From NCBI GenBank assembly GCA_965222155.1, contig CBDCTH010000012.1, positions 1,824,001-1,888,000 of the forward strand: a DNA stretch of 64,000 nucleotides. The letters run 5' to 3'. This document shows, in pieces, positions 1-28,353 of this stretch. This DNA is from Gammaproteobacteria bacterium (GTDB lineage Bacteria; Pseudomonadota; Gammaproteobacteria; Eutrophobiales; Eutrophobiaceae). Every line of letters begins with the position of its first letter. Position 1 is the first letter of the stretch. Both the position numbers and the translations under genes were made by a program. The notes under the pieces are model-generated. The model saw only the letters and a list, made by a program, of their open reading frames with translations. It was not told the origin of the DNA and made no database searches.

Positions 1-1960
1 CGCCACTGTAAATTTCATCTCCGTACCTGTCCGTGCCAGGGCTCAAAAAGCTGATTGCCGGGCGCGCCAGGACTCGAGAACCGGCAACTCTGACGATAAT
101 GTCTTCGGTTGGGAAGAAGTTGACGTTGGCTGAGGGCAATACTTCGGTGTATTTGTCATTGGTTGAGATGGGCATTTCAACCCCATCGACGTTGGTAGTT
201 CCCTGCGTATCAGCGTCGGTAGTGACGATACGAACGCCAAAGTTGCCTGAGGCAGGAATACCAAAAAATAGGTCGGTCTCAAAGTCCGCCTGAACATAGT
301 AAGCCTTGAGGTCTTCCTCGATAAAATGCCCCCCGCTGGCTTGATCTTCTGCCTCAATGCCGGCAAAAACCGTATTCCATATTGCCCGGGTATCCAGCAC
401 GAGAACCGGATTGGCATCAAAAGCCGAGTCTGCCCCTGACTGATCATACGCATCGAAAACAAAATCAGGATCGATTGCAACAGAAGAGTCAATGTCTGCC
501 GGCGCAGGATCAAGGCGGGCATCACGCCTGACCAGGAGGTTGTCACGATTCACCAGTCGTAAGCCCGCCTTGAAGGCCGTAAAGAACGGATAATCAACAG
601 CGTATTCGGCGTCGAATTTGTAAGTAAAAATCTCATCCTCCCGCTCGTTTTCGATGAGACGAAAGGCATCAACCCGGTTCGTGGCAAGGTCGGTAAAATC
701 CAGGGGCGACGTCAAAAATCCGGCGCCCTGCGCATTTTCTCCGAACGTTGAAACAGGCCGCACCAACTCGAGCGAACCCGGCAAGCCGCTGTATGGTCGA
801 TAACCAACGGTAGTGTAGGTGTCTTCACCGTCCGCTTTAGAGTAGGAAAAGTCATACACCAGTGTCAGCGCACCTGCGGACCATTTTCCTTCGATGCCAT
901 AGCTGTGTAACTCACTGTTCCCATCATCCAGTGAATTGAACGCTGCAAGATCCTGCCCCCGCTTGCGCATTACACAGTTGTTGGTTTGTTCATGCAGGCA
1001 GGTAACAGTTGCCCCAACCACATTAAAATCATCTGTTTCCACGTTCCTCCACCTGTTGCCGGATGAACCAAGCCCGCCTGCCAAGCGCAAACCAGCACCG
1101 GTGTTGGTCTGTTCGAACGTGGAAAAGAAACCATCGAAATTGACTTCAAAATTCTCAACGGGTTTCCATTGAATGGTAGCTAAAACGGAGTGGCGGTCAC
1201 TGGTACCGTTGAAAACGCTGTATTCGGCTCCATACGGGATGTTGAAACTGTTATGGTCGCCAAAACCATTCGGGAGTCCATCAATCGCTCCACCCTGCCC
1301 GACTGTCCTGGATTCGTATATCTGTGAATCGGCGCCGACCAGCGGTGCGTATTGCCCGGCATAGCCGATGGCAATACCCAGTGTATCGTCGGCGAATTGA
1401 TCAAGATACGCAGCGCTGCCGCGATAACCAAACTCTTCACCGTCCGGTAAATCACCGGCCAGATCGTTGTAGCGGCCGCGAACATTAACGGTAACATACT
1501 GTTCGCCCCACTCCAGAGCCCGCGCAGTTCGCAGGTTCAGGGTACCGCCTATACCCCCCTCAACACGACTCGCGGAGGGCGCTTTATACAAGCTGGCGCG
1601 GGAAATCAATTCAGCCGGAAACATGTTGAAAGCTACGCTTCGGTCGCCCCATTCACTGGCAATGTCCCGGTCATTCAACGTGCCATTCGTCAATACCGCG
1701 CCCAGGCCGCGAATGGAAACATTATTCGCGCCGAAGGCATTGCGCGTGTAAGAGACGCCGGGCAGTTTCGCCAGCGCTTCTGCCACGCTGGTGTCCGGGA
1801 GTTCGCCGATATCCTCGGCAGACAGAGCTTCAATGATCTCGGATGCCCGGCGCTTCTCGTCCAGTGCGTCACTCAAACTGCGCTGGAACCTGTTGCCGAT
1901 GACTCGAATTTCCTCGATTTCTACTGCCTTCTCATCTTCTTCCACTTCCGTTTTCACGGT
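1..1960 (-). other. TonB-dependent receptor moiety (TonB box, plug, partial barrel) of the giant protein
   Basis: Translation EEIRVIGNRFQRSLSDALDEKRRASEIIEALSAEDIGELPDTSVAEALAKLPGV...SIRGLG...MFPAELI...YKAPSASRVEGGIGGTLNLRT, typical of the Xanthomonas/Caulobacter-type TBDR plug, followed by beta-strand sequence (IEEDLKAYYVQADF...GNFGVRIV). Confidence 0.93.
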
Positions 1961-4900
1961 TTCAGCATCCTCTGCTTGAGCCAGAATCCTTGCAGTACGT
2001 CGGCTATGGCTATCGCTACCCGTCGTTGGTAGCCCCTGCAATTCAGCAGTTAACCATATTTCGTGTGACGGACTCGTATCCGTATCAATTGCTGAGATGC
2101 CATGGACAGGCAGCGCCGTTAAGTTGGATGAAAGTTCGAGCTTCACCTTATTTCCGCCCGATACCAGGTGATAACGAGCACCTGATTTCGCCCTGTAACC
2201 GGCTTCATCGGTAACGTCAAATTCAGTGAAAGGTGTTATTACACCGCCTGTATTCGGTGCCAGAAAACCGTAACTGAGTTCCGTGTGAAGTGACCCGAGA
2301 CGACGCTGCTCCTGTATGCCCCTGTGTAATAACCCGGATACGTTCGGACGCCACATGGCCTCCGTGCCCTCAACCGATCCACCCCACCGAGGCGATAGTA
2401 ACAGTGACAACCCTGTACCATCACTGTACGGCTGCAATCCGGCCGACAGGCTGAAGCCCTGCTCCTCATAATCATCATCCTCCGAGTGCAACACCAGTAT
2501 GCGACCACGCGCCTCCAGCCAAAATCCGGATGCTGCACTGTCATAGCGCAAGCCACTGGCAAACTCGATCCCGGCGCCTGTGTTATCACCGTCACCCCCG
2601 TCGTAACGGACACCGACGTCTGCAAAAGGCCTCACCATTGCAGAGTTTTTCAGCATGAACGGGTGGGAAGCTTCAAGACCCAAACGCAACTGGCTGGCGT
2701 TAACCGCCAGGTCGTCAACCGATTGCATACCATCGTCAGTCCACAGCCGGATAAATGCCGCATCAGCGCGTAGTGCCCAGTTCATGCCGCCGGAATCTGC
2801 GCTGAACATCCGCCGTCCGCCGAAGGCGCCCAATGCAACCGACAAATCCGTCGACTCCCGCACCGAACCATCAGTGTGTTCGGCTTCTCCCCAGCCGGCG
2901 CCCAGGATCGCCCACACTTCGGTGCGCTCATTGAGCAGTAGCCTGGTATATGGCAGGATAGTGGTCAGTTCCGTGTCCAGTTCTCCCTTCTGGTTGTCAA
3001 TAACATAATCTGCCCCACTGACACTGTGTGATACGGACACGCCGGCCAGCAAGTCTTCCTTGATGCGCAGATCCGCACCCAGGTATCCGGTGTAAATGTC
3101 ACCATCGTGTGAGTCGCCGTCAAACGATTGAATATCGCCGCTGCCCCAAAGATTCCACTGCCGGCTGTTTTGACCGCCGCCACCGAACGACATCAGGAAA
3201 GCGCTGTCTCGCAGTAACTGACGCCAGCTTACGGTCTGATCATGATTGCGCTGCGCAACTCGCTCAAATCCGAATTCACTGCTCGACATCTCTCCAGCGG
3301 TGATAAACCCGACGTGGTCGCTATTGGGAACAATAGCGTCCCAGCCGGTTTCATTCGACATCCGTACGGCTAACTCATCCAGGGTAATTTGTCTGCCAGC
3401 CAGAGAAAATTCCGAAGTATCCGACGTCGCAGTAAAACGATTCCCGATTGTAGAGACTACGCTGGATAACATGTTGCGACCTATTGTGGCTGAAACATCT
3501 TCCAATGCTGCTTGTTTATCTACAGGAGTGACCTCCGGTGTCTCGGGTTCCTCTGGCACAGGTTCGGCCTCATCCTGAGTCACCGCCGTCACCGTCTCAG
3601 ACTGCTCACTATTCTGATAATCCGGCGGGTAGGATGCCCCTACCGCATACAGGTAGGTGGCGCCCGCCATCACCCCGCCCGTGTCCCCACCGGTATCCGT
3701 GTAACTGGTCGGCGCAGGCGGCGCATCACCCTCGTTCGCCACCCAGGCATGCCACTCCAACTCACAGCTTGTCTCATCTTCCGGCACTTCACAGCGATAC
3801 ACGTTATACCCCAATATACCGTCTGCCGGCGCAGCCCAGCTCAGGCTGACTGATTCTGCGCTGGTGGCCGTCACTGTCAACCCGGTCGGCGCCGGCGGTG
3901 TCTCTGGTTCTGTCTCACTCTGAGCCAGCGCCGTCACTTCGTTTGACCAATCACTGTCTCCACCCCGATACGCTGCTACCGTATACCGGTAAGTCGTGCC
4001 GGCAACCACCGGGCTTTCGCCTCCCGCCTCATGTGCAGTCGAATCATCATGGGTATCAGTGAATGCCGTGCCGTCATCCACCCAGGCTATCCAGTTATCG
4101 GCTGTCAACTCACAAGACTCCTCACAACGATAGACGTTGTAGGCCTCAATCGGGCCACCGCCATCATCCGCCGGCGCCGTCCAGCTTAAGCTGATCGCAG
4201 TCTCACTGGTGGCCGTCACCGTCAACCCGGTCGGCGCCGGCGGTGTCTCTGGTTCTGTCTCACTCTGAGCCAGCGCCGTCACTTCGTTTGACCAATCACT
4301 GTCTCCACCCCGATACGCTGCTACCGTATACCGGTAAGTCGTGCCGGCAACCACCGGGCTTTCGCCTCCCGCCTCATGTGCAGTCGAATCATCATGGGTG
4401 TCAGTGAATGCCGTGCCGTCATCCACCCAGGCTATCCAGTTATCGGCTGTCAACTCACAAGACTCCTCACAACGATAGACGTTGTAGGCCTCAATCGGGC
4501 CACCGCCGTCATCCGCCGGCGCCGTCCAGCTTAAGCTGATCGCAGTCTCACTGGTGGCCGTCACCGTCAACCCGGTCGGCGCCGGCGGTGTCTCTGGTTC
4601 TGTCTCACTCTGAGCCAGCGCCGTCACTTCGTTTGACCAATCACTGTCTCCACCCCGATACGCTGCTACCGTATACCGGTAAGTCGTGCCGGCAACCACC
4701 GGGCTTTCGCCTCCCGCCTCATGTGCAGTCGAATCATCATGGGTGTCAGTGAATGCCGTGCCGTCATCCACCCAGGCTATCCAGTTATCGGCTGTCAACT
4801 CACAAGACTCCTCACAACGATAGACGTTGTAGGCCTCAATCGGGCCACCGCCATCATCCGCCGGCGCCGTCCAGCTTAAGCTGATCGCAGTCTCACTGGT

Positions 4901-7900
4901 GGCCGTCACCGTCAACCCGGTCGGCGCCGGCGGTGTCTCTCTGAGCCAGCGCCGTCACTTCGTTTGACCAATCACTGTCTCCACCCCGGATACGGTGCTG
5001 CTACCGTATACCGGTAAGTCGTGCCGGCAACCACCGGGCTTTCGCCTCCCGCCTCATGTGCAGTCGAATCATCATGGGTATCAGTGAATGCCGTGCCGTC
5101 ATCCACCCAGGCTATCCAGTTATCGGCTGTCAACTCACAAGACTCCTCACAACGATAGACGTTGTAGGCCTCAATCGGGCCACCGCCGTCATCCGCCGGC
5201 GCCGTCCACCGTAGCTTAAGCTGATCGCAGTCTCACTGGTGGCCGTCACCGTCAACCCGGTCGGCGCCGGCGGTGTCTCTGGTTCTGTCTCACTCTGAGC
5301 CAGCGCCGTCACTTCGTTTGACCAATCACTGTCTCCACCCCGATACGCTGCTACCGTATACCGGTAAGTCGTGCCGGCAACCACCGGGCTTTCGCCTCCC
5401 GCCTCATGTGCAGTCGAATCATCATGGGTATCAGTGAATGCCGTGCCGTCATCCACCCAGGCTATCCAGTTATCGGCTGTCAACTCACAAGACTCCTCAC
5501 AACGATAGACGTTGTAGGCCTCAATCGGGCCACCGCCGTCATCCGCCGGCGCCGTCCAGCTTAAGCTGATCGCAGTCTCACTGGTGGCCGTCACCGTCAA
5601 CCCGGTCGGCGCCGGCGGTGTCTCTGGTTCTGTCTCACTCTGAGCCAGCGCCGTCACTTCGTTTGACCAATCACTGTCTCCACCCCGATACGCTGCTACC
5701 GTATACCGGTAAGTCGTGCCGGCAACCACCGGGCTTTCGCCTCCCGCCTCATGTGCAGTCGAATCATCATGGGTATCAGTGAATGCCGTGCCGTCATCCA
5801 CCCAGGCTATCCAGTTATCGGCTGTCAACTCACAAGACTCCTCACAACGATAGACGTTGTAGGCCTCAATCGGGCCACCGCCATCATCCGCCGGCGCCGT
5901 CCAGCTTAAGCTGATCGCAGTCTCACTGGTGGCCGTCACCGTCAACCCGGTCGGCGCCGGCGGTGTCTCTGGTTCTGTCTCACTCTGAGCCAGCGCCGTC
6001 ACTTCGTTTGACCAATCACTGTCTCCACCCCGATACGCTGCTACCGTATACCGGTAAGTCGTGCCGGCAACCACCGGGCTTTCGCCTCCCGCCTCATGTG
6101 CAGTCGAATCATCATGGGTATCAGTGAATGCCGTGCCGTCATCCACCCAGGCTATCCAGTTATCGGCTGTCAACTCACAAGACTCCTCACAACGATAGAC
6201 GTTGTAGGCCTCAATCGGGCCACCGCCATCATCCGCCGGCGCCGTCCAGCTTAAGCTGATCGCAGTCTCACTGGTAGCCGTCACCGTCAATCCGGTCGGC
6301 GCCGGCACCTTCGGCTGTTCAGGCTCCGGGACGGGTTGGCCCTTCGCCGTCGCCGTCACTGCCTCTGACCGGTCTCCATTCCTGTAATTCGGCGGATAAG
6401 ATGCCGCTACCATATAGCGGTAGGTCGCGCCGGCAGTGACGCTTCCGGTCTCACCGCCGGTATCCGTATAACTGGTCGGCGCAGGAGGGGTATCACCCGC
6501 ATTCGCCACCCAGGCATGCCACATAGGTTCGCAGGACGTTTCGCCTGTCGACACACTGCAACGATAGACGTTGTAACCCAATATACCTTCCGCCGGCGCC
6601 GTCCAACTCAGGCTGATCGCAATCCTGCTAGTCGCCGTCACCGTCAAATCGGTGGGCGATGCATACCTCCCTCGTTGCGTCGTTACAGTTACCTGATTGG
6701 ACCAGGGACTCACGTCATCGGCCGACCGATACGCGGCCACCGCATAGCGGTAGGTCGTCCCCGGTTCTGCGTCGTTATCTCTATAGTCGGTCAGAGCAGG
6801 ATTCCGGCTGACCAAATGCAGGAATTCACTGCAATCCGGGGAGCGGTCTACGTTGCAGCGATAAATATCGTAAGCCTGAATCGGACCCCTGCCATCATCC
6901 TCCGGCGCGGTCCAACGTAACCTCACCGACGCTTCATCTACCTCCGTCACCATCAGTCCGGTCGGCGCAGACACCATCTGTGACATTTGCGCCACCACCG
7001 TGACCGCCTTGGACAGGTTATCTCTCCCAAAAGGATGTACTGCTACCTGATATCGGTAGGTCTCTCCCGGGGTCACTTCGGTGTCGGTGTAGGCATTGGT
7101 ATTTTCCAGGTAGGCAAGCCATAGGTCGTCGTAGGGTTCACAGGTCGACTTGCCCTCCCCCTCTGGCACCGTACAGCGATATACACTATAAGCGGCTCCA
7201 TCGCCGCTGCTGGGGGATGGTTTCCAGTGTAGGCTGACAGATTCTGCACTGACCGCCGTCACTTTCAACCCGACGGGTACGGCCGGTCCGGTTTCCTTGG
7301 GCGCTCGAGGCGTTCCCGTCGTTGCCGTCACATAAGCCCAACCGCCGTTCCCACTCCTATATGCCGCCACCGCATAGTGGTAAGTCGTACCGGCTACCAC
7401 CGGACTGTTGCCGCCCTTTTCATGCGCAGTCGAGTCATCATGGGTGTCAGTGAATTCCGTGCCGTCATCCACCCAGGCTATCCAGTTTTCGGCCGTCAAC
7501 TTGCACGGTTCCTCGCAACGATAAACGTTGTAGGCCTCAACCGGGCCACCGCCGTCATCCACCGGCGCCGTCCAGCTCAGGCTGACTGATTCTGCGCTGG
7601 TTTTCGTCACCGTCAACCCGGTCGGCGCCGGAGGCGTCTCCGGTTCCGGTTCTGGTTCTGGTTCTGGTTCTGTCTCACTCTGAGCCGTCGCCGTCACTGC
7701 GTTTGACCAATCGCCTACCACAGCCCGAGACGCCGCCACCGCATAGCGGTAGGTTGTCCCGGCGGCCACAGTCGTATCGGTATACTCGGTGTTACCGGGG
7801 ACTGCTACCCAGGCCAACCATGGGAAAACACTGCAATCGCTGGAACTGCTCTCGTCACAACGATATACATTATACCCTTCAATGGCACCGCCGCTATCGT

Positions 7901-10900
7901 CAGCCGGCGCCGTCCACGCCAGACTGATGCTGCTGTCACCCTCTGCCGTCACCGTCAACCCGGTCGGCGCCCCCACTGTCACCGCGGTCACTACTGTACT
8001 CCCGGACTTCATCCCCTCTCCCGCACTGTTACTGGCGCTCACCTGATAACAGTAGGTCGTCCCGCCCGTCACACTGTTGTCCGTGTACGTCGTGCCGGTC
8101 GTCGACAGACCGCTTCGCAAGACGCTCAACCCCGTGCAGGCGTTGCCTGTCCCCCGGTACAGTGTGTACGCCGTCAGGGCACTGCCACCGTCACTCCCCG
8201 GTACCGCCCAAGTCAATACCACCTTGGCCGCCGTCGCCTGGCCCTCCAGACTACCCGGCGCTCCCGGCGCAGTCGGCGTGCGCGCCGTCGCCGTCACTGC
8301 GTTTGACCAATCGCCTCCCGCAGCCCGATACGCCGCCACCGCATAGCGGTAGGTTGTCCCGGTGGCCACAGTCGTATCGGTATACTCGGTGTTACCGGGG
8401 ACTGCTACCCAGGCCAACCATGGGAAAACACTGCAATCGCTGGAACTGCTCTCGTCACAACGATATACATTATACCCTTCAATGGCACCGCCGTCATCGT
8501 CAGCCGGCGCCGTCCACGCCAGACTGATGCTGCTGTCACCCTCTGCCGTCACCGTCAACCCGGTCGGCGCCCCCACCGCCACCGCGGTCACTACCGCACT
8601 CCCGGACTTCGCCCCCTCTCCCGCACTGTTGCTGGCGCTCACCTGATAACAGTAGGTCGTCCCGCCCGTCACACTGTTGTCCGTGTACGTCGTGCCGGTC
8701 GTCGACAGACCGCTTCGCAAGACGCTCAACCCCGTGCAGGCGTTGCCGGTCCCCCGGTACAGTGTGTACGCCGTCAGGGCACTGCCACCGTCACTCCCCG
8801 GTACCGCCCAAGTCAATACCACCTTGGCCGCCGTCGCCTGGCCCTCCAGACTACCCGGCGCTCCCGGCGCAGTCGGCGTGCGCGCCGTCGCCGTCACTGC
8901 GTTTGACCAATCGCCTCCCGCAGCCCGATACGCCGCCACCGCATAGCGGTAGGTTGTCCCGGCGGCCACAGTCGTATCGGTATACTCGGTGTTACCGGGG
9001 ACTGCTACCCAGGCCAACCATGGGAAAACACTGCAATCGCTGGAACTGCTCTCGTCACAACGATATACATTATACCCTTCAATGGCACCGCCGTCATCGT
9101 CAGCCGGCGCCGTCCACGCCAGACTGATGCTGCTGTCACCCTCTGCCGTCACCGTCAACCCGGTCGGCGCCCCCACCGCCACCGCGGTCACTACCGCACT
9201 CCCGGACTTCGCCCCCTCTCCCGCACTGTTGCTGGCGCTCACCTGATAACAGTAGGTCGTCCCGCCCGTCACACTGTTGTCCGTGTACGTCGTGCCGGTC
9301 GTCGACAGACCGCTTCGCAAGACGCTCAACCCCGTGCAGGCGTTGCCGGTCCCCCGGTACAGTGTGTACGCCGTCAGGGCACTGCCACCGTCACTCCCCG
9401 GTACCGCCCAAGTCAATACCACCTTGGCCGCCGTCGCCTGGCCCTCCAGACTACCCGGCGCTCCCGGCGGTGCTTGTGCCGTCTGAGTGACTACATCGGA
9501 CCAATCACTGGCACTGTTAGGTTCTGCACTAGTGCCATCATACCGATATGCTGCTACCGCATAGCGGTAGGTTGTCCCGGCGGCCACAGTCGTATCGGTA
9601 TACTCGGTGTTACCGGGGACTGCTACCCCGGCCAACCATGGGAAAACACTGCAATCGCTGGAACTGCTCTCGTCACAACGATATACATTATACCCTTCTA
9701 TCGCTCCGTTGCCGTCATCTGTCGGCGCTGCCCAACTCAGACTGATCGAAGTGTCACTGGCCGACGTGATTGTCAATCCGGTCGGCGTCGGAGGCTTGGG
9801 TAGAGCAACCGGCGGTGCTTGTGCCGTCTGAGTGACTATATTGGACCAGCTGCTATGCTTCCCCGCCCGGGAGGCTATCACTCCATACCGATAAGTCTTC
9901 CCCTCCGTCACTTGATCGTCTGTGAAAGTCGTCGTCTCCGAAGTCACCCAAGCTAACAAATCCGACGACTCATCGGGTAAGGGATCAGTGGGCTTATCAA
10001 GCACACACGTACTCGTACCCTCCACACACCGGTACACACCGTAACCGTAACTATTCAACACACCACCGCCGTCATCTGCCGGCGCAGTCCAACTCAGACT
10101 GATTGCAGCGCCACTCGCCGCACTCACCCTCAAACCACCCGGCGCACCCACTGTCACCGCCGTGACTACCGCAGCACCCGACTGCGTCCCCTCTCCCGCA
10201 CTGTTGCTGGCGCTCACCCGATAACAGTACGTCTCTCCCTCCACTACATTGCTGTCTATGTACTCTCCTGTCGAAACTCCCGCGTCCAGAACGTTTCGAA
10301 TGACGTCTAACCCCGTGCAGGTATTACCCGTCCCCCGGTACACGTCATAACCCGTCAACGCACTGCCGCCGTCGTCACCAGGCGCCACCCAAACTAATCG
10401 CACCCGGTCCGCCGCCGCCTGTCCCTTCAGACTACCCGGCGCAGTCGGCGCAGTCGGCGCAGTCGGCGTGCGCGCCGTCGCCGTCACTGCGTTTGACCGA
10501 TCGCCTCCCGCAGCCCGAGACGCCGCCACCGCATAGCGGTAGGTTGTCCCGGCGGCCACAGTCGTATCGGTATACTCGGTGTTACCGGGGACTGCTACCC
10601 AGGCCAACCATGGGAAAACACTGCAATCGCTGGAACTGCTCTCGTCACAACGATATACATTATACCCTTCAATGGCACCGCCGCCATCGTCAGCCGGCGC
10701 CGTCCACGCCAGACTGATACTGCTGTCACCCTCTGCCGTCACCGTCAACCCGGTCGGCGCCCCCACTGTCACCGCGGTCACTACTGTACTCCCGGACTTC
10801 GCCCCCTCTCCCGCACTGTTACTGGCGCTCACCTGATAACAGTAGGTCGTCCCGCCCGTCACACTGCTGTCCGTGTACGTCGTGCCGGTCGTCGACAGAC

Positions 10901-12174
10901 CGCTTCGCAAGACGCTCAACCCCGTGCAGGCGTTGCCTGTCCCCCGGTACAGTGTGTACGCCGTCAGGGCACTGCCACCGTCACTCCCCGGTACCGCCCA
11001 AGTCAATACCACCTTGGCCGCCGTCGCCTGGCCCTCCAGACTACCCGGCGCTCCCGGCGCAGTCGGCGTGCGCGCCGTCGCCGTCACTGCGTTTGACCAA
11101 TCGCCTCCCGCAGCCCGATACGCCGCCACCGCATAGCGGTAGGTCACCCCCGTCGTCACGTCATCATCAGTCGTATGCGGTATACTCGTGTGTCGTACCG
11201 GTCGTGACCCGGGCTATCCACGTCGGCGTACAGGGGCTGCTCCTTCCACACAGCGATACACGTTATAGGCTTCAATGGCACCGCCGCCATCGTCAGCCGG
11301 CGCCGTCCACGCCAGACTGATGCTGCTGTCACCCTCTGCCGTCACCGTCAACCCGGTCGGCGCCCCCACTGTCACCGCGGTCACTACTGTACTCCCGGAC
11401 TTCATCCCCTCTCCCGCACTGTTACTGGCGCTCACCTGATAACAGTAGGTCGTCCCGCCCGTCACACTGCTGTCCGTGTACGTCGTGCCGGTCGTCGACA
11501 GACCGCTTCGCAAGACGCTCAACCCCGTGCAGGCGTTGCCGGTCCCCCGGTACAGTGTGTACGCCGTCAGGGCACTGCCACCGTCACTCCCCGGTACCTG
11601 CCCAAGTCAATACCACCTTGGCCGCCGTCGCCTGGCCCTCCAGAGTACCCGGCGCTCCCGGCGCAGTCGGCGTGCGCGCCGTCGCCGTCACTTCGTTTGA
11701 CCAATCACTGTCTCCACCCCGATACGCCGCCACCGCATAGCGGTAGGTTGTCCCGGCGGCCACAGTCGTATCGGTATACTCGGTGTTACCGGGGACTGCT
11801 ACCCAGGCCAACCATGGGAAAACACTGCAATCGCTGGAACTGCTCTCGTCACAACGATATACATTATACCCTTCAATGGCACCGCCGTCATCGTCAGCCG
11901 GCGCCGTCCACGCCAGACTGATGCTGCTGTCACCCTCTGCCGTCACCGTCAACCCGGTCGGCGCTCCCAGCGCTTGCACATTCACTGGTAATGAAACGAG
12001 GAACAGCAGACTCACTGATGAAAGGATCGGGGTTACACCAAACAAACCGGTGACAGCAGGTGGCAACCTGCGACATTGGACGTCTGAAGTGGTCCCCCTT
12101 ATGGCCATTTTCTGAAAAAAATGGGGGGGGGGGGGGGGGGGGGGGGGGAACAACCAGCTAATCATTCTTAACAT
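1..12174 (-). CDS. Giant (>4050 aa, 3' end beyond window) surface protein: signal peptide - ~26 FN3 domains - autotransporter-type beta-barrel - TonB-dependent receptor; apparent frameshifts at ~11599, ~11160-11245 and ~4936-5215
   Basis: ATG at 12174 has AGGAGA 7 nt upstream. Track ORFs 11584..12198, 11214..11522 and 5130..11159 are consecutive pieces. I read the frame codon by codon from ~3960 to ~1900 with no stop and spot-checked below that. The track lists no ORF for this frame, consistent with it being open from ~4935 to base 1. Confidence 0.8.
2036..3520 (-). other. Autotransporter-like linker helix and beta-barrel domain of the giant protein
   Basis: Helix KQAALEDVSATIGRNMLSSVVSTIGNRF, then WNLWGSGDIQSF...GYLGAD...RPFADVGVRYDGGDG...LEARGR...LSPRWG...ELSYGF...TPFTE...HEIWLTAELQ. 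Confidence 0.8.
3901..6305. repeat. 7 tandem near-identical 345-bp units, each one 115-aa FN3 domain
   Basis: Unit boundaries TCTCTGGTTC at 3901, 4246, 4591, (4936), 5276, 5621 and 5966. The 4936-5275 copy is 340 bp with several indels. Confidence 0.95.
7685..11965. repeat. 600-bp two-FN3 (A+B) repeat unit: ~3 tandem copies at ~7685-9465 and further copies at ~10470-11965
   Basis: Identical shadow ORFs recur at 8077/8677/9277 (600-bp period) and at 10873/11476. Protein repeats PGAPGSLEGQATAAKVVLTW... and GAPTGLTVTAEGDSSISLAW.... Confidence 0.92.
12123..12148. repeat. G26 homopolymer (C26 on the coding strand) at codons 9-18 of the giant gene
   Basis: Direct count of 26 G; encodes F-P8-H ahead of the signal peptide. 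Confidence 0.9.
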
Positions 12175-12734
12175 GATTAAGTCTCCTGAAATATTCACAG
12201 GTTACGCGCAGCGTAGTAATTGGGAGAGGGGAGTAATTAGCCATTTGCAGTCGAAGCTGTTACATGGGCCGGGAGTCCTTACTCTTAGCATTGCCCTGTC
12301 CGATACAGACTGTTGGAAACAGGCAGACAAAAGCGGCTGTTATCAGCGACGGTAGCAACTGTAATTGGGACTTCATATCAACAATACTACCCTCGTGGCT
12401 ATCAAGCGCTAAAGAAAACAGAACTATCCATTTGCTTTTGCAAGGCTTAAACAGACTATGCGTTGCTGATAAATGCACTTCGACTGAATAAATAATATTA
12501 CAAAAAATTAAAAAATCATCATATATATGACTTTAAATTACATTTTAACCTATTTTGTAATTTATGTGCATAAAAAGATGCCTGAACAAGACCTGAATAG
12601 AAGAATTTAAAGCTTATTTTGATGCTTAATGTAGATTGTTGACTGGATATCTATGATCTTGCCTTGGACCGCAGGTAGCAATCAGCCAAAATCAACCAAA
12701 ATTCGGGGGGTTGGTATTAAACTTGGGTTAACTA

Positions 12735-15700
12735 TTATTGGCACATATTCGGAGTCAGCTGTAGAGAGATTTCAGCAAGTTGGGCTTGCGCCCGATTGAT
12801 GAGGTCGCCGGCCCGACCGGCCATCAATGGGCCACTGGAAAAAGTATCCACTGTTCTTTCTAATCGACTCAGCCACCTGCCGGGGAGATTGTTCCGACCG
12901 CATCCTGACAGACTGTTACGTAATACCTTTACTTTCTCAAAGTCTTCTATCCCTTCGCGCAGCAACTCCGAGCGAATGCTGGGCACGACTGTCATGTCCC
13001 TGTCGTTACTGCTCCGGTATACCAGTGAGAAATCACCCGCGCTATAGGCGCCCTCACGCAAGTCCAGCGGATCAGATGACCTCCAGTTATCAAAGGCCCA
13101 GCGCAAATAACCATCCTGGCGTCTTTGCAGGGCATGCCAGGGTAGTGCTGCCATGTCCAGTGGATCTGCATTGGCGGCAACGAAGCTGTTGGGGCGGGGT
13201 TGCACACAGCTTGTGTAGAAAGTGCTTATCTGGTCCGGGTAGTTAGTCCGGTTATCTGCATAGGTCCAGCCCAGGTACGCTGTGGGAGTACAGGTTTCTG
13301 ACCCCATACAGCGATATATGTCATAGCCTGTAGTAGCATTCCCAGTCCAACTCAGCTGGATTGCCGTGGCGCTTGCTGCCAGTGTTGTCAACTCAGTGGG
13401 TATTGTGCCGGTATTGCCTGGTTGCGCTGTGTCTGCTGCAATACGGTCATCTCGTTGGACTGGCTGTCGCAGACGGTCCCATTACACGCCTGCAACGCAG
13501 AGGGATAGGCCGATGCCACAGAGTAGTTGAAATCCCACCCTGACCACGAATCCCACACTTGGTGATTAACCATATCAGCAGCCATCGCCGTTATCTGGTG
13601 AGATCGGTTCCCGCAGCCGCTCCTGTTACATGCTTGCACCGTATAACGATAGGTCATATTCGCAGCCACATCAGAGTCGCTATAGGTGATACCGGATGCC
13701 ACCCAGTCCAACCAGGCAGGGATACAGGGACCATTCTCGTCCACACAGCGGTAGATGTTATAACCAGTCAGAGCGCTGCTGCCGGTTGCCGACGGCGCCG
13801 TCCAGTTCAACGTAATCCCCGTAGCGTTCATCGCAGTTAAGCCAGTCGGTTCCCCCGGAACGGTCGGTGTCTGTGCCATCACCGTCACGGGGGGTGACGG
13901 AGCACTGCAGACATCATTGCACGCGTCCACTGCATAGCGGTAGGTCTCGCCCGTTATCAACCCGCTGTCAACATAAGTGGCGCCGACCAGCACCATCGAA
14001 CCGGAGCTATCATAAAGCTTGCTGAGAACATGGTCATCAGGACCGTCATGCCCGTAACCAATATAAGCCAATCCGATTTTCCAGTTTTCATCAATGGCTC
14101 GAACCAGATTGATCACTGCCTCCGTATCGTCCTCAGAAGATTCGTCCATGTAGAGAACCGTTTTATCGAGCCATTCTTTTTCCAGCAGGTGAGCTCTGAA
14201 GTCAATTAAAAAATGTCTCCAGCGTGTATTCCAGGCAGATGACCCTACATCTGCTCGAAATGTTTTCTTGCTTTGAGTGGTCTCGTCCCAATAGGGGATG
14301 TCACCCCAGTTCCAGCCCACCGGAGAGAAAGCGCTGATCTGTTGATCAAGACCCCAGGCCGCAAGACGACTCACGTAGGTATCAAAAACAGAATAGTCGT
14401 ATTCCCGACTGCCGTTTCTTTTCAGCGTCCAACGGATCATGGACGGTGCGCCCAAGGCACCCTCTTTAATGTAAGTAGTCACGGTTCGCTGACCCAGTTC
14501 GGCCAGATAACGGTAGGTGGGTTCCAGCAGCGCATAATGTTCTTCCGACCAGAGTTCTATCCGACCTCCCGGATTAGCATCGTTGTATCGGTCCAGCACG
14601 GAGACGGGAAACTGCCACAAATCCAGGTGGAACTGCCGCTCTGCTGTTCCGGGCATAGTCCAGGTAGTAACCTGAAGCGAAACTTGAAGCGTTGTCCGGG
14701 CAACTGGTGTTGCCCCTGATACTGCATTGATAGTCACTGTAGCTGAGTATTCTCCAGCGGGAGTATCAGATGGGATATCCACTGACATCCACACCAATTC
14801 AGGCCAGGATAGCGGCAATGTCTGGTCCGGTCCGGAAAACAGCGCATCGGACAGGTATACAGTTGTATTCTCTTGCTCATAATTCTTATTGCAGCTACGT
14901 ACCTCGGTATGCCCGGCGACAAAACGGGGATAGCGGAACGATACCGCACTGGCTGGAATGACGTCATTCGTCACGCTTGTAAGATCAGTGGAAACCAGAG
15001 ATATTCGACTATTTGACGGGACGTGTTTGACCAGGATATGTTGCTGGATACGTTCGCCTTTCCAGGCGATGCTGTTCCATGTGGTTATACCAGATAGTTC
15101 AGGTAAAACATCTCTTCGGAACCATTGAGACCCGGATTCAAATGAAGCCTCAAGTTCGCCCAGGCAGGAACATATAGTCCCAGGTACAGCCGAAAGGTCA
15201 CTACATCCGGCAGATGCGCCCTTGAGTGCCTCATTCACCGCGCGCACCGAAAGCGAATACTGAACACCATCAATCAAACCGGTAACCGTATACGACTTTG
15301 TTGTCGTACCGGTGGGTATAATACTGATCCAGCTTCCATTGTCAGTCCCAGTCCTGATTAGAAGCTCCCATCCCGTGACAGGGCCTGATGGGGGCGTCCA
15401 ACTCAACGTGATTTGCCCATCAGCCGGTGTGGCTATCAGATTCGTCGGTGCATCTGGCGCGGACGCAATGGGCGGAGGTATCTCCCGTGCCACCGCCGTC
15501 ACTGCTTCAGACCGCTCTCCATTTGCATAATCCGGTGGATACGACGCTGCCACTGCATACAGATAGGTGGCGCCTTCAGTCACCCCGCCGGTCTCTCCAC
15601 CGGTGTCGGTGTAACTGGTTGGCGCAGGGGGGGCATCACCTTTATTCGCAACCCAGGCATGCCATTCCAACTCACAGGCCACCGCACCGGACTGCACACT

Positions 15701-16237
15701 GCAACGATACACGTTGTAACCCAATATGCCGTTTGCCGGCACCGTCCAAGTCAGACTAATCGAGGTCGTACTGGTGGCCACGATCGTCAGACCGGTCGGC
15801 GCCGCCGATAACGGCTTCTCCGGCTGCAGGGGCGACTCACCCTGCGCCACCGCCTCCACCTCATTCGACCAGTTACCTTCTTCAGCGCGGTAAGCCGCCA
15901 CCACATAACGGTGAGTCGTGCCTGAAATGAAGGGCTTGTCTGCCGTGCCGCTGTCCGTGTAGGTCGTGCCGCTCGTTACCCAGGCCAGCCAGTCGCTGTC
16001 GGCGTCGATGACACAACCCACCCCCTCACAGCGATACACGTTATAGGCTTCTATCGCACCGTACCCATCATCCGGCGGCGCCCTCCAACTCAGTACAATC
16101 CGGCCATCAGCGGATGCGGCAGTCAAATTCGTCGGCGTACCGGGAGCTACAGCCAGCGCCAAGGGAGAAACAACAAAAAACAATACACCATACAGTAACA
16201 GAGCAAAGCGGTTTGTTGCCAAGTTAGACTCTTCCAT
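12735..16237 (-). CDS. Secreted FN3x3 - GH123-like (DUF4091) beta-N-acetylgalactosaminidase with internal FN3 insertion; one frameshift near 13441
   Basis: ORFs 13388..16237 and 12735..13391 join with a 1-nt shift (...EMTV|AADTAQPGNTGTIPTELTTLAAS). Motifs HLDLWQFP, LYMDE, FYTSC, DGYLRWAF and LREGIEDFEK are collinear with the neighbouring paralog. Confidence 0.8.
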
Positions 16238-16414
16238 ACCAAATCATCTTTAATCTGTAATTTAAGTTACACTCCCCCTTCGGTCCCGCAAATCAGGGGA
16301 ACACGGAAAGACAAATCCTACCGTTAAGGAGATTAAAGGGTTGAATATTATTGGCATATATATAGACACCAACTTACTATTGAACAGCAATATTTATTCA
16401 CAGATATCGCTTTT

Positions 16415-16458
16415 AATGTAATAAGATTACATTTTAGGCCATAATCAAAGCAAGTCAA
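16415..16458 (-). promoter_or_regulatory. sigma70-like promoter (TTGACT-16-TAAAAT) overlapped by palindromic operator AATGTAAT-AAG-ATTACATT
   Basis: Perfect 8-bp-arm palindrome at 16415-16433; same geometry as the 20515-20558 site. Confidence 0.7.
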
Positions 16459-16474
16459 TTGTTATCGGCAACTG

Positions 16475-18727
16475 CTATCGACACATATCGGGGGTTACTG
16501 ATTGCGACATTTCATGGAGTAACGCACGAGCTTGGGAAATAAGTTCAACTGACTGCCCGGCCATCAACTGCCCGGTTGAAAAAGTGTTGACTGTCTCTTG
16601 CAACCTGGTCAGCAAATCTTCTTTTTCACACCGTAACATCACATTACGTAGTACTTGAACTTTTTCATAATCCTCAATCCCATCACGCAGCAATTCCGAC
16701 CTGGCGCTGGGGATTACCGTCATGTCTTTGTCGTTGCTATTTCGATAAACGAATGAGAAATCACCCGCGGTAAATGAACCATCACGCAAGTCCAAGGGAT
16801 TGTGGGATTTCCAGTTGTCGAAGGCCCAGCGTAAATAGCCGTCATGTTCCCTGACCATGGCATACCAGGGCATTGCTGCCATATCCGCCGGATTGGCGTC
16901 AGCGGCAACGTAATTGTTCGGGCGCCTGAGCGAACAACTCGTGTAAAAAGTAGTTACCTGGTTTGCGTAAGTCTGTACATCTGTTTCACTTTCGTAATAC
17001 CCGGACACGTCGTAAAGACTGGCGATGACGCTCTCACCTGGGGCATGGCCGTAGGCCAGGCCGATTTTCCAATCCTTGTCATTGAAGCGAATCAGGCCGA
17101 TAACCGCTTCCATTTCTTCCTTGGGCACCTCGTCCATGTACAGGACGGTTTTCTCAAACCAGCCCTTTTCAAGCAAATGTTCCTTGAAACCGGTGAGAAA
17201 GTGATTCCATAACGCGTTATATTCTTTAGATCCTATGCTAGTCTTGAATATTTTCATTTTTCCACTGGCCTCATCCCAGAAGGGGAGTTCGTCCTTATTC
17301 CATCCAACCGGGGAAAAGGCGCTGATCTGATCATCAATGCCCCACTCGGCAAGACGCTCGACATGTGCATCAAAAACCGAATAGTCGTATTGCCAACGTT
17401 TTCCGTTATCCAGTGCAATCCAACGGATCATTGACGGTGCGGCGAAGGCTCCCTCCTTGATATAAGTAGTAACGGTTCGCTGGCCCAATTCAGCCAGGTA
17501 GCGATAGGTGGGTTCCAAAAGAGCGTAATGTTCAGCTGACCAGGTCTTTATCCGTCTTCCCGGGTTGGCGTCGTTGTATCGGTCCAGTACGGATACCGGA
17601 AATTGCCATAAATCCAGGTGAAACTGCCGTTCGGAGGCTGGTGGTATGCGCCAGGGGGTCACCTCAAATTCAACATGGAGGGATACCTGCTCGCCTGAAG
17701 TCGAACTGACGGTAACACTGCCAACGTAGTCGCCGGGTTGGGCGTCACCAGGGATATCTATCGACATCCAAATTATCGCGGGATAAGAACGCGGCCGGTT
17801 TCGAGGCTGTTGCGGAAACAACGCATCTGACAAGTAGACAGCTTCGTCCCGCTCCGGGTAACCGTCGCAATCACGCGCCTCGATATCGCCGATAACGAAT
17901 TGCGGGTATCGAAACGATACCGCGCTGGCCGGGATAATATTTGCTCGACTTTTGAAATCACCGACAACCACGGAAACTTTTTTGCGTGACAGGACACCCG
18001 TCACCAGTATTTGTTTCTGTATGCGTTCACCTCTCCAGACAACACTTTTCCACGCTGATACCCCTGAGAGCTTCGGTATATTGCTTTTTTGAAACCATTG
18101 GAATTCGGATTCAAAAGATGCCGCAAATGTATCGGCAGTGACCTTAGCGCCTTTGTTGTCAGCCTGTTCGGTAGTGTCTGTCTCATTAGCGGAACTTTGC
18201 GCCTCTTCATCTACGACTTCAATGGTGAAACGCAGGGAATCCGCATCGCCCGTGGTCCAATTCTCATCATCGTCATGGACCCATAAATGGAAGGTTCTCT
18301 TCTTTAAAGCGTATTTTGGCGTACCGCTCAATACGCGTGTGAATCGATCGAGGCTCAACCCTGGCGGTAATTTAGCCGGATCAAAGCTGTAATCGCTGAG
18401 TTCGTTATTGTTGATATCAGGATCAATGTTCCCACCTGTGGCTGCGGGAAGGGTTATCACGTCGATGGGTATCCCCTTAATAAAGACAAGGTTGCCGATT
18501 TTGGCGGTGCCAGGAAAGGTCGGTGCAGTGTCAGTTTGTGCGCCGGCTTGTCCCATCCACAAGCTTGCTATAAGCGTCAACATGATCAGACTCCCCACAA
18601 TTCGACGACTTTGCAGTGGGGCAGCTGCTTTACATATTGATATCCACATCGCTTGTCGGAAAGACAGAATGATCAACAAACTGCTGAGAGCGTTCAATTT
18701 GCCATATACGTGAAATCGCTGGGCCAC
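16475..18727 (-). CDS. GH123-like (DUF4091) glycoside hydrolase with N-terminal Ig/cadherin-like (He_PIG) domain; true start probably downstream of 18727
   Basis: Signal-like segment ending AGA-Q, Ig motif LPPGLSLD...LSGTP, then LDLWQFP, YMDE, DGYLRWAF, AGDFSFVY and LRDGIEDYEK. Confidence 0.85.
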   Translation of the reverse strand: MAQRFHVYGKLNALSSLLIILSFRQAMWISICKAAAPLQSRRIVGSLIMLTLIASLWMGQAGAQTDTAPTFPGTAKIGNLVFIKGIPIDVITLPAATGGNIDPDINNNELSDYSFDPAKLPPGLSLDRFTRVLSGTPKYALKKRTFHLWVHDDDENWTTGDADSLRFTIEVVDEEAQSSANETDTTEQADNKGAKVTADTFAASFESEFQWFQKSNIPKLSGVSAWKSVVWRGERIQKQILVTGVLSRKKVSVVVGDFKSRANIIPASAVSFRYPQFVIGDIEARDCDGYPERDEAVYLSDALFPQQPRNRPRSYPAIIWMSIDIPGDAQPGDYVGSVTVSSTSGEQVSLHVEFEVTPWRIPPASERQFHLDLWQFPVSVLDRYNDANPGRRIKTWSAEHYALLEPTYRYLAELGQRTVTTYIKEGAFAAPSMIRWIALDNGKRWQYDYSVFDAHVERLAEWGIDDQISAFSPVGWNKDELPFWDEASGKMKIFKTSIGSKEYNALWNHFLTGFKEHLLEKGWFEKTVLYMDEVPKEEMEAVIGLIRFNDKDWKIGLAYGHAPGESVIASLYDVSGYYESETDVQTYANQVTTFYTSCSLRRPNNYVAADANPADMAAMPWYAMVREHDGYLRWAFDNWKSHNPLDLRDGSFTAGDFSFVYRNSNDKDMTVIPSARSELLRDGIEDYEKVQVLRNVMLRCEKEDLLTRLQETVNTFSTGQLMAGQSVELISQARALLHEMSQSVTPDMCR

Positions 18728-20322
18728 TCTCCGTATACGCGGTAGTTAATTCCCATCGCTGCATAGCGCTGACATTGAATTTCAATGCGTTTTCTGAAAT
18801 CGTCCAGGTCTTTTTCCCCCTTGGGACTCCAGGCAATCTCGGCCAGGGCAGACAGTCTTGGAAAGATCATGTATTCATAATAATCATTTGTCTTGATAAA
18901 CTCCGTCCATAGGTTGGCTTGCAGCCCGAGGACCTGTGCCTCTTGTTGCGGCGTGTACGTATCGGGGATCGGCTCCCACTGGTAAATAAGCTCAACCGAA
19001 TTGGGGCCGTTATCATTCCCTTCCCAGGGAGCGCCCGGCTCTCCCACGTAATTGGGGTAGTCGAAATAGAGGTAATTGGTGGGCGAGATAATGACACGAT
19101 GACCCTTTTTGATGGCAAGGTCGAGCGCCTCAGGCCGTAGGTGCAGCCACCACTGCACAACTGCCGCAGGGTTCACGTCAAAGTTAACTATTTCATCCCA
19201 GCCGATGGGTGTATAACCTTGGCCCACAATGAAGTCAGCCACGAACCGGTCGAAGTGCCCCTCCACCTCGTGCAGGTCGGTGTAGCCGTGTTCCTGCATG
19301 AAGGAATCTATTTCCGGTAATTTGGCCCAGTGATGGTTTCGAACTTCGTCACCGCCGAAATGAAGGTAGCCGGAGGGGAACAACTCCATGACTTCGGTCA
19401 GTATGTTCCTGACAAATTCATAGGTCTGCTTATTCCCGGGATTGAAGGTTTTGTCACCATCGAAGAATTCCGGATAGGCCCTGGCAGCCGCCTTGGAATG
19501 GCCCGGCATGTCAATTTCAGGTACAACCATGATGTGGCGCTGCCCGGCATACTCGATAATTTCACGGATTTCCTCTTTCGAGAAATACAGACGAGCAGGA
19601 CCTTCCGGGTTGGACATATCCCCGACAGCACCCACGTTGATGAGTTTTGGATACTGTTCTATCTCAAGGCGCCAACCCGGATCGTCCGTCAGGTGGAGGT
19701 GGAGTACGTTGAGTTTATGGATGGACATCGCATCAATGGTCTTTTTTAACTGCTCTTTGGAGAAGAAATGACGAGAGACATCAATCATCAGGCCTCTCCA
19801 TGAAAACCTCGGACGGTCGGTTATGTCAACGCGTGGGATTGACAGTTCATCAGGTCTGAGGAGATCGGGTTCCTGCGCGTAAATGCTTGGAGGGAACATC
19901 TGCAGTAGCGTTTGAACTCCATAGAACAGCCCTGCCGGGTCGGACGCCGAAATGTCGATTTGTTTACCGGTCACGCGTAGATGATAACCCTCCTTGTCTT
20001 GATCAGACATTTGCGGCGATGAAGCAAACAGACGCAAATTAATTGTGACCGAATCACTATCAGCCTTGCGTTGACGTATGGGCAACTCGAAACCGGCGGC
20101 TTTTCGCAGCCGCTCGGCAAGGTAGGATGCCGACGTGTGTGCGCGGTCATCAGCAACGATTGATGTTCGAGCATCTATCGAAAACGATCCCGAGGATTTT
20201 TTCAGTGAGAATGGCTTTGGAATAATCGTGAATTCAGGGTCTTCACCCTGTGCTAATAACGGTGTGCTGGAAAGGATGAACACGAAGGTAACTTTAATAA
20301 TAGGCAGAAGATAGCTTTTCAT
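18694..20322 (-). CDS. GH20 beta-N-acetylhexosaminidase, secreted
   Basis: DRPRFSWRGLMIDVSRHF, HLHLTDD.GWRLEI, PEIDMPGH, HFGGDEV and LWTE motifs; signal peptide from MKSYLL (ATG 20322). Confidence 0.95.
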   Translation of the reverse strand: MKSYLLPIIKVTFVFILSSTPLLAQGEDPEFTIIPKPFSLKKSSGSFSIDARTSIVADDRAHTSASYLAERLRKAAGFELPIRQRKADSDSVTINLRLFASSPQMSDQDKEGYHLRVTGKQIDISASDPAGLFYGVQTLLQMFPPSIYAQEPDLLRPDELSIPRVDITDRPRFSWRGLMIDVSRHFFSKEQLKKTIDAMSIHKLNVLHLHLTDDPGWRLEIEQYPKLINVGAVGDMSNPEGPARLYFSKEEIREIIEYAGQRHIMVVPEIDMPGHSKAAARAYPEFFDGDKTFNPGNKQTYEFVRNILTEVMELFPSGYLHFGGDEVRNHHWAKLPEIDSFMQEHGYTDLHEVEGHFDRFVADFIVGQGYTPIGWDEIVNFDVNPAAVVQWWLHLRPEALDLAIKKGHRVIISPTNYLYFDYPNYVGEPGAPWEGNDNGPNSVELIYQWEPIPDTYTPQQEAQVLGLQANLWTEFIKTNDYYEYMIFPRLSALAEIAWSPKGEKDLDDFRKRIEIQCQRYAAMGINYRVYGEWPSDFTYMAN

Positions 20323-20326
20323 AATT

Positions 20327-28325: not shown

Positions 28326-28353
28326 ATTCCTCCCCTCTCTGACGTGGCATTTG

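Follow-up and report, generated by a model that had tools for sequence, protein, structure and literature searches.

A recurrent chain of FN3 passenger, autotransporter-type beta-domain and TonB-dependent receptor without its own signal peptide

Polypeptides in which an FN3 passenger and an autotransporter beta-domain are followed by a TonB-dependent receptor (TBDR) without its own signal peptide represent a real, recurrent and selected architecture, one member of which is encoded at the start of the window (the whole stretch of 64,000 nucleotides analysed here). We give a probability of about 0.6 to the reading that its product is a genuine two-barrel outer-membrane protein, which stays uncut and belongs to a carbohydrate-utilisation locus. 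The minus-strand frame for the two barrels is open from window position 4954 through position 1 and runs on to 670 nt past the window start, with 1874 codons and a stop after ...LGASYRF. Pfam and NCBIfam searches of that single frame gave four fn3 stretches, Autotransporter (PF03797), Plug (PF07715) and TIGR01782, and thus bear out the first-pass annotation of this DNA in placing the last FN3 domain, the autotransporter helix and barrel and the TBDR in one minus-strand frame. Its further claim of a single ORF of more than 4000 residues over 1-12174 is contradicted, as the stalk is broken at about 4955-5235, at 11171-11240 and at about 11596.

Domain order and predicted structure of the chain

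All features of the chain lie on the minus strand. An ATG at 12108-12106 begins a putative signal peptide (MAIRGTT...LLFLVSLPVNVQA, 11968..12108, recognised by inspection), and about 15 nt upstream of this ATG lies a run of 26 C in the coding strand (12123..12148; 26 G in the plus strand). The FN3 passenger, or stalk (3560..11967), has roughly two dozen modules by length and 1+1+12+4 significant fn3 stretches in Pfam. Within it, a 345-bp unit made up of one FN3 module and a Pro/Glu/Thr spacer is repeated 7.2 times in tandem (3825..6306; 96% matches, 2% indels), the damaged copy included. Next comes the autotransporter linker alpha-helix (QAALEDVSATIGRNMLSSVVSTIGNRF, 3431..3526), which is predicted to sit in the barrel pore and whose motif is conserved in three of the related genomes (G003, G005 and G006), and then the autotransporter-type beta-barrel domain (2036..3202), a PF03797 core (residues 591-789 of P0001) with about six extra strands as judged from Pfam, AlphaFold2 and Foldseek. 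The receptor half consists of the TonB box IEEIRVIG (1895..1918; by inspection, aligned with EEIVVTG or EEIVVIG of stand-alone relatives), the plug domain (1541..1855; residues 1021-1125 of P0001; PF07715 at 56.2 bits, cut-off 23.9) and a receptor barrel of the TIGR01782 subfamily (1..1540, then 670 nt beyond the window start). The TIGR01782 score was 340.5 bits against a cut-off of 310 for a query without the last 223 receptor residues. Plug, TonB box and C-terminal aromatic residue (...LGASYRF), by which a TBDR is recognised, are thus all present. Moreover, the window's own genome has 63 Plug matches and five TonB_C (PF03544) matches above cut-off, the latter being candidate TonB partners.

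The assignment of the first barrel rests on both profiles and models. PF03797 scored 47.8 bits with the isolated domain (cut-off 26) and 43.2 bits in the whole protein, and it was matched by 48 of 68 aligned family members at E <= 0.01. The AlphaFold2 model of the barrel domain alone (pLDDT 79, pTM 0.73) has a helix at model residues 7-38 (pLDDT 86-94) directly ahead of the barrel, an insert of roughly 75 low-confidence residues after this helix, and 18-19 strand elements between model residues 115 and 503 by DSSP (pLDDT mostly 80-98). Foldseek matched it to the beta-domains of EstA, BrkA and EspP (TMt 0.54 for EspP and 0.53 for BrkA), and the modelled barrel is probably wider than the canonical 12 strands. 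An earlier AlphaFold2 model of barrel, linker and plug (680 aa, mean pLDDT 60) serves as a pointer only, with linker and plug poorly modelled. The distance from the pore helix or first strand to the C-terminus is about 1300-1400 residues; a merged single large barrel would be unlikely, given the plug and linker between the two barrels. The alignment used for a profile search against solved structures included full-length proteins; FN3 matches therefore dominated the result, which gave no information on the barrel.

The genes upstream on the same strand (12735..20337) encode glycoside hydrolases: an FN3-GH123 that is split in two (13388-16237 and 12735-13391), a GH123 (16475-18727) and a GH20 hexosaminidase (18694-20337). 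The GH20 and the two GH123 genes justify the earlier description of the region as a hexosaminidase locus, and they suggest uptake of a glycan with GalNAc or GlcNAc. In related genomes, the fused gene has a GH123 gene directly upstream and a GH53 gene downstream (G010), or GH2 and sodium:solute symporter genes as neighbours (G003).

Recurrence of the fusion and breaks in the stalk

The same order of passenger, barrel, linker and receptor was found in four other species of the genus, where the fused chain is free of stops (G003, 2186 aa; G005, 3613 aa; G006, limited by its contig and with an LRR passenger; and G010) and its domains are confirmed by Pfam. The fused form is present in 5 of 41 genomes of one set and in 5 of 126 genomes of the family, all from one genus; none was found in the other 33 genera of the family, of which 103 genomes were searched. 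The database search proposed in the first-pass annotation was also productive, since at least eight database proteins have the fused architecture (34–83% identity). Seven of them (P0003, P0004, P0005, P0006, P0007, P0009 and P0011) cover 98–100% of the barrel-linker-plug query at 49–83% identity, and the complete ones among them run from an N-terminal signal peptide to a C-terminal ...YRF or ...YRP. Among the best 150 cluster representatives, five are fused: P0006, P0010, P0011 and P0153 by span, and P0135 by Pfam. As this rare fusion recurs in related genomes, it looks real and not like a sequencing error. We gave up the hypothesis that genes for autotransporters and receptors generally neighbour each other in operons, because a related receptor (E <= 1e-8) was found in the flanks of only one of 76 loci from other metagenome-assembled genomes, each holding a relative of the barrel domain, and that locus (L035) is the same as G005.

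A phylogenetic tree of the receptors (built in 'quick' mode with no mixture model, rows of less than 600 residues, namely P0006, P0117 and G006, being left out) places the fused forms in three separate, well-supported clades, which share 29–64% identity in the receptor half and have all their frames open; stand-alone receptor relatives are found at 62–68% identity. Between the window's chain and that of G010, dN and dS were 0.21 and 1.60 in the C-terminal part of the first barrel, 0.04 and 1.42 in the plug, and 0.10 and 1.23 in the receptor barrel, giving dN/dS of about 0.03–0.13 over both halves, ratios that are rough since dS is above 1 and near saturation. Judged from these codons, both halves are under purifying selection.

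Clade depth and selection bear directly on a less favourable reading, in which a deletion took the stop of the autotransporter gene and the signal peptide of the receptor, so that the fusion is neutral or decaying, its product is non-functional or matters only by its receptor half, and the whole gene in this genome is a pseudogene. The distribution in a single genus would suit such a history, and G010 has lost most of the autotransporter barrel by a 287-residue in-frame deletion relative to the near-identical P0007, so at least one genome either can do without the barrel or has lost it. In addition, about 6 of the 63 Plug-bearing frames in the window's genome are short, which together with the split GH123 neighbour indicates that broken genes are not rare there, and multi-barrel fusions often arise and vanish according to the main text of an in silico survey from 2021 (PMC8346858). 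However, three well-supported clades that remain open at such divergence, with low dN/dS in both halves, speak against it, and we regard this reading as rather improbable.

The breaks in the stalk of this assembly, which also speak for decay, need separate consideration. The frame changes within one FN3 repeat at about 4955-5235, which departs from the 345-bp unit by indels of +5, +3, +1 and -14 nt; a stop codon lies at 11214-11216 with shifts nearby, and another shift is at about 11596. These breaks put the start that bears the signal peptide (ATG 12108), and with it most of the stalk, in a different frame from the barrels, so that the 1874-codon frame as written has no export signal. By inspection, signal peptides comparable to that of the window begin the fused homologues P0003, P0007, P0009 and P0011. 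In public run X2, a contig joins 3866 to 6277 and skips 2410 nt, that is 7x345-5 nt, which brings the upstream and downstream frames into register; the depth across 4921-5330, zero in all four public runs, was used only alongside this contig. Furthermore, one base is missing at 11595-11597, where the window shifts frame, in the contigs of all four runs. Depth in the contigs at this site and at 11171-11239 is 3 to 9 times that of the unique flanks, and about 2% of the letters differ in the two listed there (records 15 and 31); these contigs may come from paralogous repeat copies and are a hint, not proof. The public contigs argue that at least some of the breaks are repeat-assembly errors, and the stalk breaks in this assembly are probably of that kind. 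As written, the gene may be in decay in this strain. Reads of run X1 seem to be cut at 12108-12159, around the 26-C homopolymer, which is a possible slipped-strand phase-variation tract. Promoter and terminator motifs were scanned for over 11900-12800; the 3 matches, against 1.6 expected, do not rise above chance and were disregarded.

The junction and the fate of the chain

The last barrel strand, HEIWLTAELQG (2033-2065), lacks a terminal Phe or stop and continues through a linker (1919..2032) into the TonB box, as the first-pass annotation had read it. The linker, predicted to be periplasmic, is polar as described there and also acidic, with a measured length of 38 residues instead of about 45, and it has neither Met nor hydrophobic core, its best 10-residue Kyte-Doolittle mean (KD10) being 0.05 against 1.94–3.69 in the N-termini of nine of nine stand-alone receptors. 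A hydrophobic core is absent from all 11 fused linkers compared, which are 30–126 residues long with best KD10 of -0.04 to 1.42. By comparison, F, W or Y stands at the stop in 64 of 74 loci of unfused barrel relatives, and the unfused P0008 and P0012 end in ...GELRF where the window's barrel reads ...AELQG. A start followed by a signal peptide was sought in every other frame of 1800-2400 and none was found; the reading of the junction as two genes was rejected on this ground, and the view that the TBDR has no export signal of its own holds. A barrel with an even number of strands has its end in the periplasm, and other receptors are known in which an N-terminal periplasmic extension precedes the TonB box, so the fusion is topologically coherent, as had been claimed.

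It might be asked whether two real genes were joined here only by an assembly or sequencing artefact that lost a stop or indel. The same gene does have errors or breaks elsewhere in this assembly, and the contig pieces listed for the public runs end at 1921 and 2090 and leave this interval unbridged, with depth present in those bins; one X3 contig diverges upstream of 2054. On the other hand, contigs from the four public runs (three studies) show substitutions only and no indel across 1-3900. Of the further runs, X5 and X6 contain small shares of the sequence words and X7 and X8 next to none, and no RNA run is listed among those with the sequence. The same junction occurs in independent assemblies at 49–83% identity and in the four other species. 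An artefact at the junction is already contradicted, and its chance is negligible in our estimation.

A more serious rival is that the fusion serves co-export only: the receptor would have borrowed the signal peptide of the autotransporter, and the linker would be cut after crossing of the inner membrane to yield an ordinary autotransporter and an ordinary TBDR. The linkers of clade A carry RRRR-x-x-R-I-[LMI]-AQA followed by D or E, similar to the end of a signal peptide, and RRTARILAQA in the window's linker looks like a signal-peptide relic; being polar and of low confidence in the model (pLDDT 26–46), the linkers should also be accessible to proteases. However, signal peptidase I needs a hydrophobic core, which the clade A motif lacks, the linkers of clades B, C and D (30–126 residues) are unrelated and do not carry the motif, and the lost terminal aromatic residue fits a strand that is never free as a C-terminus. 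We consider such a cut unlikely.

In the uncut two-barrel protein that we prefer, one Sec signal peptide would export the entire chain, the autotransporter-type helix and barrel would insert in the outer membrane, and the long FN3 fibre would be shown on the cell surface. The last barrel strand, having lost the usual terminal aromatic residue, would continue in the periplasm via the short acidic linker to the TonB box, the plug and the 22-strand barrel of a TIGR01782-type receptor, whose half would carry the only canonical C-terminal insertion signal of the chain. GalNAc/GlcNAc-containing oligosaccharides would most likely be imported, with the fibre beside the importer in a 1:1 ratio. In this model we infer the insertion of both barrels, the uncut chain, the help of the fibre in substrate capture and the identity of the substrate. 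The 'capture' role of FN3 is weak, because we know of no FN3 modules acting as glycan binders, and we know of no experiment in which an internal barrel lacking a terminal aromatic residue was shown to insert. More tentatively, and at less than even odds, the chain may represent a new branch of type V secretion that is coupled to TonB-dependent uptake, in which an enlarged barrel of about 18 strands and the receptor form one uncut covalent machine and TonB-driven plug movement possibly acts on the neighbouring barrel through the linker. If this were true, BAM would have to manage the insertion of an internal barrel that has no terminal aromatic signal, and export of a receptor would be possible without a signal peptide of its own.

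Comparison with known systems

In textbook accounts, autotransporters end in their barrel, with a C-terminal aromatic strand as insertion signal, and to our knowledge every TBDR is described there with its own signal peptide. The present chain departs from both rules and is under selection, which makes it a direct test of the way in which tandem barrels are handled by BAM. It would also couple a surface fibre physically to an importer in host-associated marine bacteria, whose giant surface proteins of FN3, cadherin and LRR type are presumed to act in contact with the host, and might be used as a scaffold for surface display beside an uptake channel. The source bacterium is of the marine symbiont type.

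The chain resembles type Va autotransporters (EspP, BrkA and EstA; PDB 2qom, 3qq2 and 3kvn) in its helical linker and PF03797 beta-domain. By inspection, the fused homologues also have a signal peptide and a passenger, whereas the candidate start and signal peptide in the window are out of frame with the barrels. It differs in that the beta-domain is not C-terminal, has no terminal aromatic residue, is followed by about 900 more residues and has 18-19 modelled strand elements instead of 12, with TM-scores of only 0.53–0.54. Receptors of the TIGR01782 'TonB-Xanth-Caul' type are typical of carbohydrate-utilisation loci in Xanthomonas, Caulobacter and marine Gammaproteobacteria; the receptor half is like them in HMM score, plug, TonB box, ...YRF end and glycoside hydrolase neighbours, but it has no signal peptide of its own and the entire autotransporter forms an extension before its TonB box. 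Such an extension is also tolerated in the TonB-dependent transducers FecA and FpvA, where it is an N-terminal periplasmic signalling domain, whereas here it is a membrane barrel with a surface fibre. SusC with its surface glycan-binding proteins likewise has a surface element beside an importer, but here the link is covalent. The likenesses to FecA/FpvA and SusC are of general description.

Multi-barrel outer-membrane proteins have been predicted in silico by Solan, Pereira, Lupas, Kolodny and Ben-Tal (PNAS 2021; PMC8346858), whose survey reports 34 architectures, with examples in its main text such as PagP-LptD (8-26), PLA1-PLA1 (12-12), FhaC-porin (16-16) and 22-8. The first-pass annotation knew of no described protein with this architecture. 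In our literature search, no publication on a fusion of autotransporter and TBDR turned up, and the survey was the only paper found to deal with multi-barrel chains. This combination is not named in the main text of the survey, the architecture list of which is in its Fig. 1 and supplement; the combination may thus be new, but multi-barrel chains as such had already been predicted (PMC8346858). As in the multi-barrel proteins described in that main text, two full, non-overlapping barrel-family matches with a delimiting linker are present in each chain, and the fusions are lineage-specific and arise repeatedly. They also share the question of how BAM inserts an internal barrel, which that survey left open. 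The linkers are longer here (30–126 residues against 22 +/- 13), and the first barrel is predicted to secrete a passenger as well.

The fused frame and its recurrence

The fusion of an autotransporter barrel with a TonB-dependent receptor is real. The minus-strand frame with an end at 4954 has no stop codon down to window position 2, and beyond the window start the contig extends it by 670 nt to a stop, giving 1874 codons that end in ...LGASYRF. This frame contains four fn3 stretches, an Autotransporter beta-domain and a Plug domain (Pfam), as well as the TonB-dependent receptor TIGR01782 (NCBIfam; 340.5 bits, cut-off 310). On the minus strand, the last strand of the first barrel, HEIWLTAELQG (2033-2065), is followed by an acidic linker of 38 residues (1919-2032) and the TonB box IEEIRVIG (1895-1918). 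The other frames around the junction were searched for a start codon with a signal peptide behind it and none was found, so the second barrel has no export signal of its own. The first-pass annotation was thus correct in placing two outer-membrane barrels in one frame, the second without an export signal.

The same annotation had proposed a search of related genomes and databases for the fusion, which did recover it, in four relatives of the same genus (G003, G005, G006 and G010) and in database proteins. Among 41 related genomes, stop-free single frames over barrel, linker and plug are present in the window's own genome, G003 (2186 aa), G005 (3613 aa), G006 (limited by its contig) and G010, and each of these four relatives has an fn3 or LRR passenger, a Plug domain and a receptor barrel (Pfam). 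Fused frames occur in 5 of the 126 genomes of the family (34 genera), all of them in the window's genus (5 of 23 there), while the same query found none in the 103 family genomes outside it. In a large protein database, P0003, P0004, P0005, P0006, P0007, P0009 and P0011 cover 98–100% of the barrel-linker-plug query with 49–83% identity, and P0010 is a deletion form; complete fused database proteins start with a signal peptide and end in ...YRF or ...YRP. Five fused proteins are among the best 150 representatives from 1.84 billion clusters. In the database protein P0135 (1431 aa), the barrel domain (residues 35-398) is followed, after a gap of about 190 residues, by Plug and receptor barrel; either this fusion has almost no passenger, or none at all, or the gene call is truncated at its N-terminus.

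Frame breaks in the FN3 stalk

The claim that 1-12174 is one ORF does not hold in the assembly, where the frame shifts at about 4955-5235 and about 11596 and a stop codon lies at 11214-11216 with shifts close by (all on the minus strand). Because of these breaks, the likely start ATG (12108, minus), with the putative signal peptide that it opens, is not in frame with the barrels. The change at about 4955-5235 falls inside one copy of a 345-bp FN3 repeat, which differs from the neighbouring copies by +5, +3, +1 and -14 nt.

Contigs from four public sequencing runs of three studies were compared with window 1-12300. Over 1-3900 they show substitutions only and no indels; the listed pieces stop short of spanning 1921-2090, although the bins there have depth. 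One contig of run X2 links 3866 to 6277, skipping 2410 nt, which equals seven repeat units minus the exact 5-nt net error, and this join brings the frames upstream and downstream of 4955-5235 into register. At 11595-11597, the site of the other frame shift, the contigs of all four runs have one base fewer; this is a hint only, since these contigs are of high depth and may stem from paralogous repeats. The stalk frame breaks are more likely to be repeat-assembly errors than real.

Broken genes are no rarity in the window's genome (4.55 Mb, contamination estimate 7.28%), and the GH123 gene adjoining the fused gene is also split. About 6 of the genome's 63 Plug-domain matches fall in open frames of only 94-451 codons, one of which is interrupted by a TAA, so several receptor genes may be broken or mis-assembled.

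The first barrel, the linker and their history

The middle domain was modelled with AlphaFold2 from a 68-sequence alignment (pLDDT 79, pTM 0.73) as a 32-residue helix, a low-confidence insert of about 75 residues and 18-19 strand elements. The Pfam autotransporter profile spans only about the first ten strands, which points to about six strands as an addition common to the whole family, and the autotransporter-like family (window 2036-3202, barrel-domain alignment A3) thus appears to extend by about six strands beyond the PF03797 core. With Foldseek, the model matched the beta-domains of EstA, BrkA and EspP (TM 0.53-0.54 for BrkA and EspP), and large plugged barrels too (TMq 0.36-0.41). From the model, we read the first barrel as autotransporter-type and wider than 12 strands, the strand number being provisional, and the family possibly makes up a so far undescribed subfamily of wide-barrel autotransporters. 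It is widespread (1392 representatives at E <= 1e-30), occurring, according to record labels, in MAGs of many phyla, several of them marked as sponge- or coral-associated, with FN3, cadherin, LRR and similar passengers. This suggests that the barrel domain has spread across phyla. By record labels, the MAGs with loci L017-L092 include Binatia, Nitrospirales, Latescibacterota, Gemmatimonadetes and others, and in contig C1 of the congeneric genome G009 (e.g. 800637-801605 and 1657619-1658752) the domain closes giant open frames that reach 21,139 and 15,554 codons.

In unfused relatives the homologous strand ends the chain on an aromatic residue (e.g. ...GELRF in the database proteins P0008 and P0012), and 64 of 74 unfused barrel loci terminate in F, W or Y. 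Stand-alone receptor relatives have ordinary signal peptides, and a hydrophobic core is absent from all 11 fused linkers. The linkers of the window's clade retain RRRR..RI.AQA, which looks like a signal peptide remnant whose core was deleted. One contig of run X3 matches receptor and linker as far as 2054 and then continues into 221 nt of unlike sequence, whose first 30 letters keep the reading frame (...FDPERYHQNE|LTAELQ); apparently this is a variant in which the first barrel ends differently.

In the receptor-half tree, the fused proteins fall into three distinct clades with good support, namely the window with P0003, P0004, P0005, P0007 and G010, then P0009 with P0011, and G003 with G005, and stand-alone receptors lie between them; in this half, G003 and G005 share only 29% identity with the window's protein. 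The tree requires three state changes, of which supported branches force at least two, so the fusion arose or was undone more than once. When the window is compared with G010, dN/dS comes to about 0.13 over the C-terminal portion of the first barrel, about 0.03 over the plug and about 0.08 over the barrel of the receptor, at a dS of 1.2-1.6, near saturation. Such low ratios indicate that selection has kept both halves and the open frame. A counter-example is G010 (locus L013, 4975-9225), which lacks 287 first-barrel residues compared with the nearly identical P0007 (1698 aa); either the barrel was naturally deleted in frame, or the assembly has collapsed there.

Locus context and comparison with known multi-barrel proteins

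The glycoside hydrolase genes upstream of the fused gene share its strand and encode an FN3-bearing GH123, another GH123 and a GH20 hexosaminidase, in agreement with the hexosaminidase locus proposed initially. The FN3-bearing GH123, directly upstream, is divided between the minus-strand ORFs 13388-16237 and 12735-13391, each with a part of the catalytic-domain profile, through a frameshift or through misassembly. At higher coordinates, this strand also encodes an N6/N4 DNA methylase (21833-22873), two amidohydrolases (23221-24570; 24634-25920) and, at 26025-28385, an ordinary TonB-dependent receptor of 786 aa. As for the relatives, the fused gene of G010 has GH123 immediately upstream and GH53 downstream, that of G003 is adjoined by GH2 and a sodium:solute symporter, and that of G005 by unknown genes and a transposase. 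Considering the glycoside hydrolase neighbours and the Plug and TonB_C complement of the window's genome (63 and 5 matches, respectively), the receptor half is most likely the glycan importer of a carbohydrate-utilisation locus, with GalNAc/GlcNAc-containing oligosaccharides as its probable substrate. We infer that the FN3 fibre would aid substrate capture; alternatively, the FN3 modules may be mere spacers.

At 12123-12148, about 15 nt upstream of the fused-gene ATG, 26 consecutive G (C on the coding strand) sit in an AT-rich intergenic region of 530 nt and form a candidate slipped-strand phase-variation tract. The reads of run X1 are apparently cut over it (12108-12159).

The fused architecture is firm, and its mechanism is one that we infer. 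The architecture had been regarded as undescribed, and a literature search for an autotransporter-TonB-dependent receptor fusion indeed found no description, but multi-barrel chains have already been predicted in silico by Solan and colleagues (PMC8346858), who predicted 34 architectures and asked by what route chains of this kind are inserted. Those named in the text of their paper include 8-8, 12-12, 8-26, 16-16, 22-8 and others; an autotransporter with a TonB-dependent receptor is not named in that text, the full list being in a figure and the supplement. Multi-barrel chains being thus already known as predictions, at least from that text, the combination of autotransporter and receptor is a variant of them.
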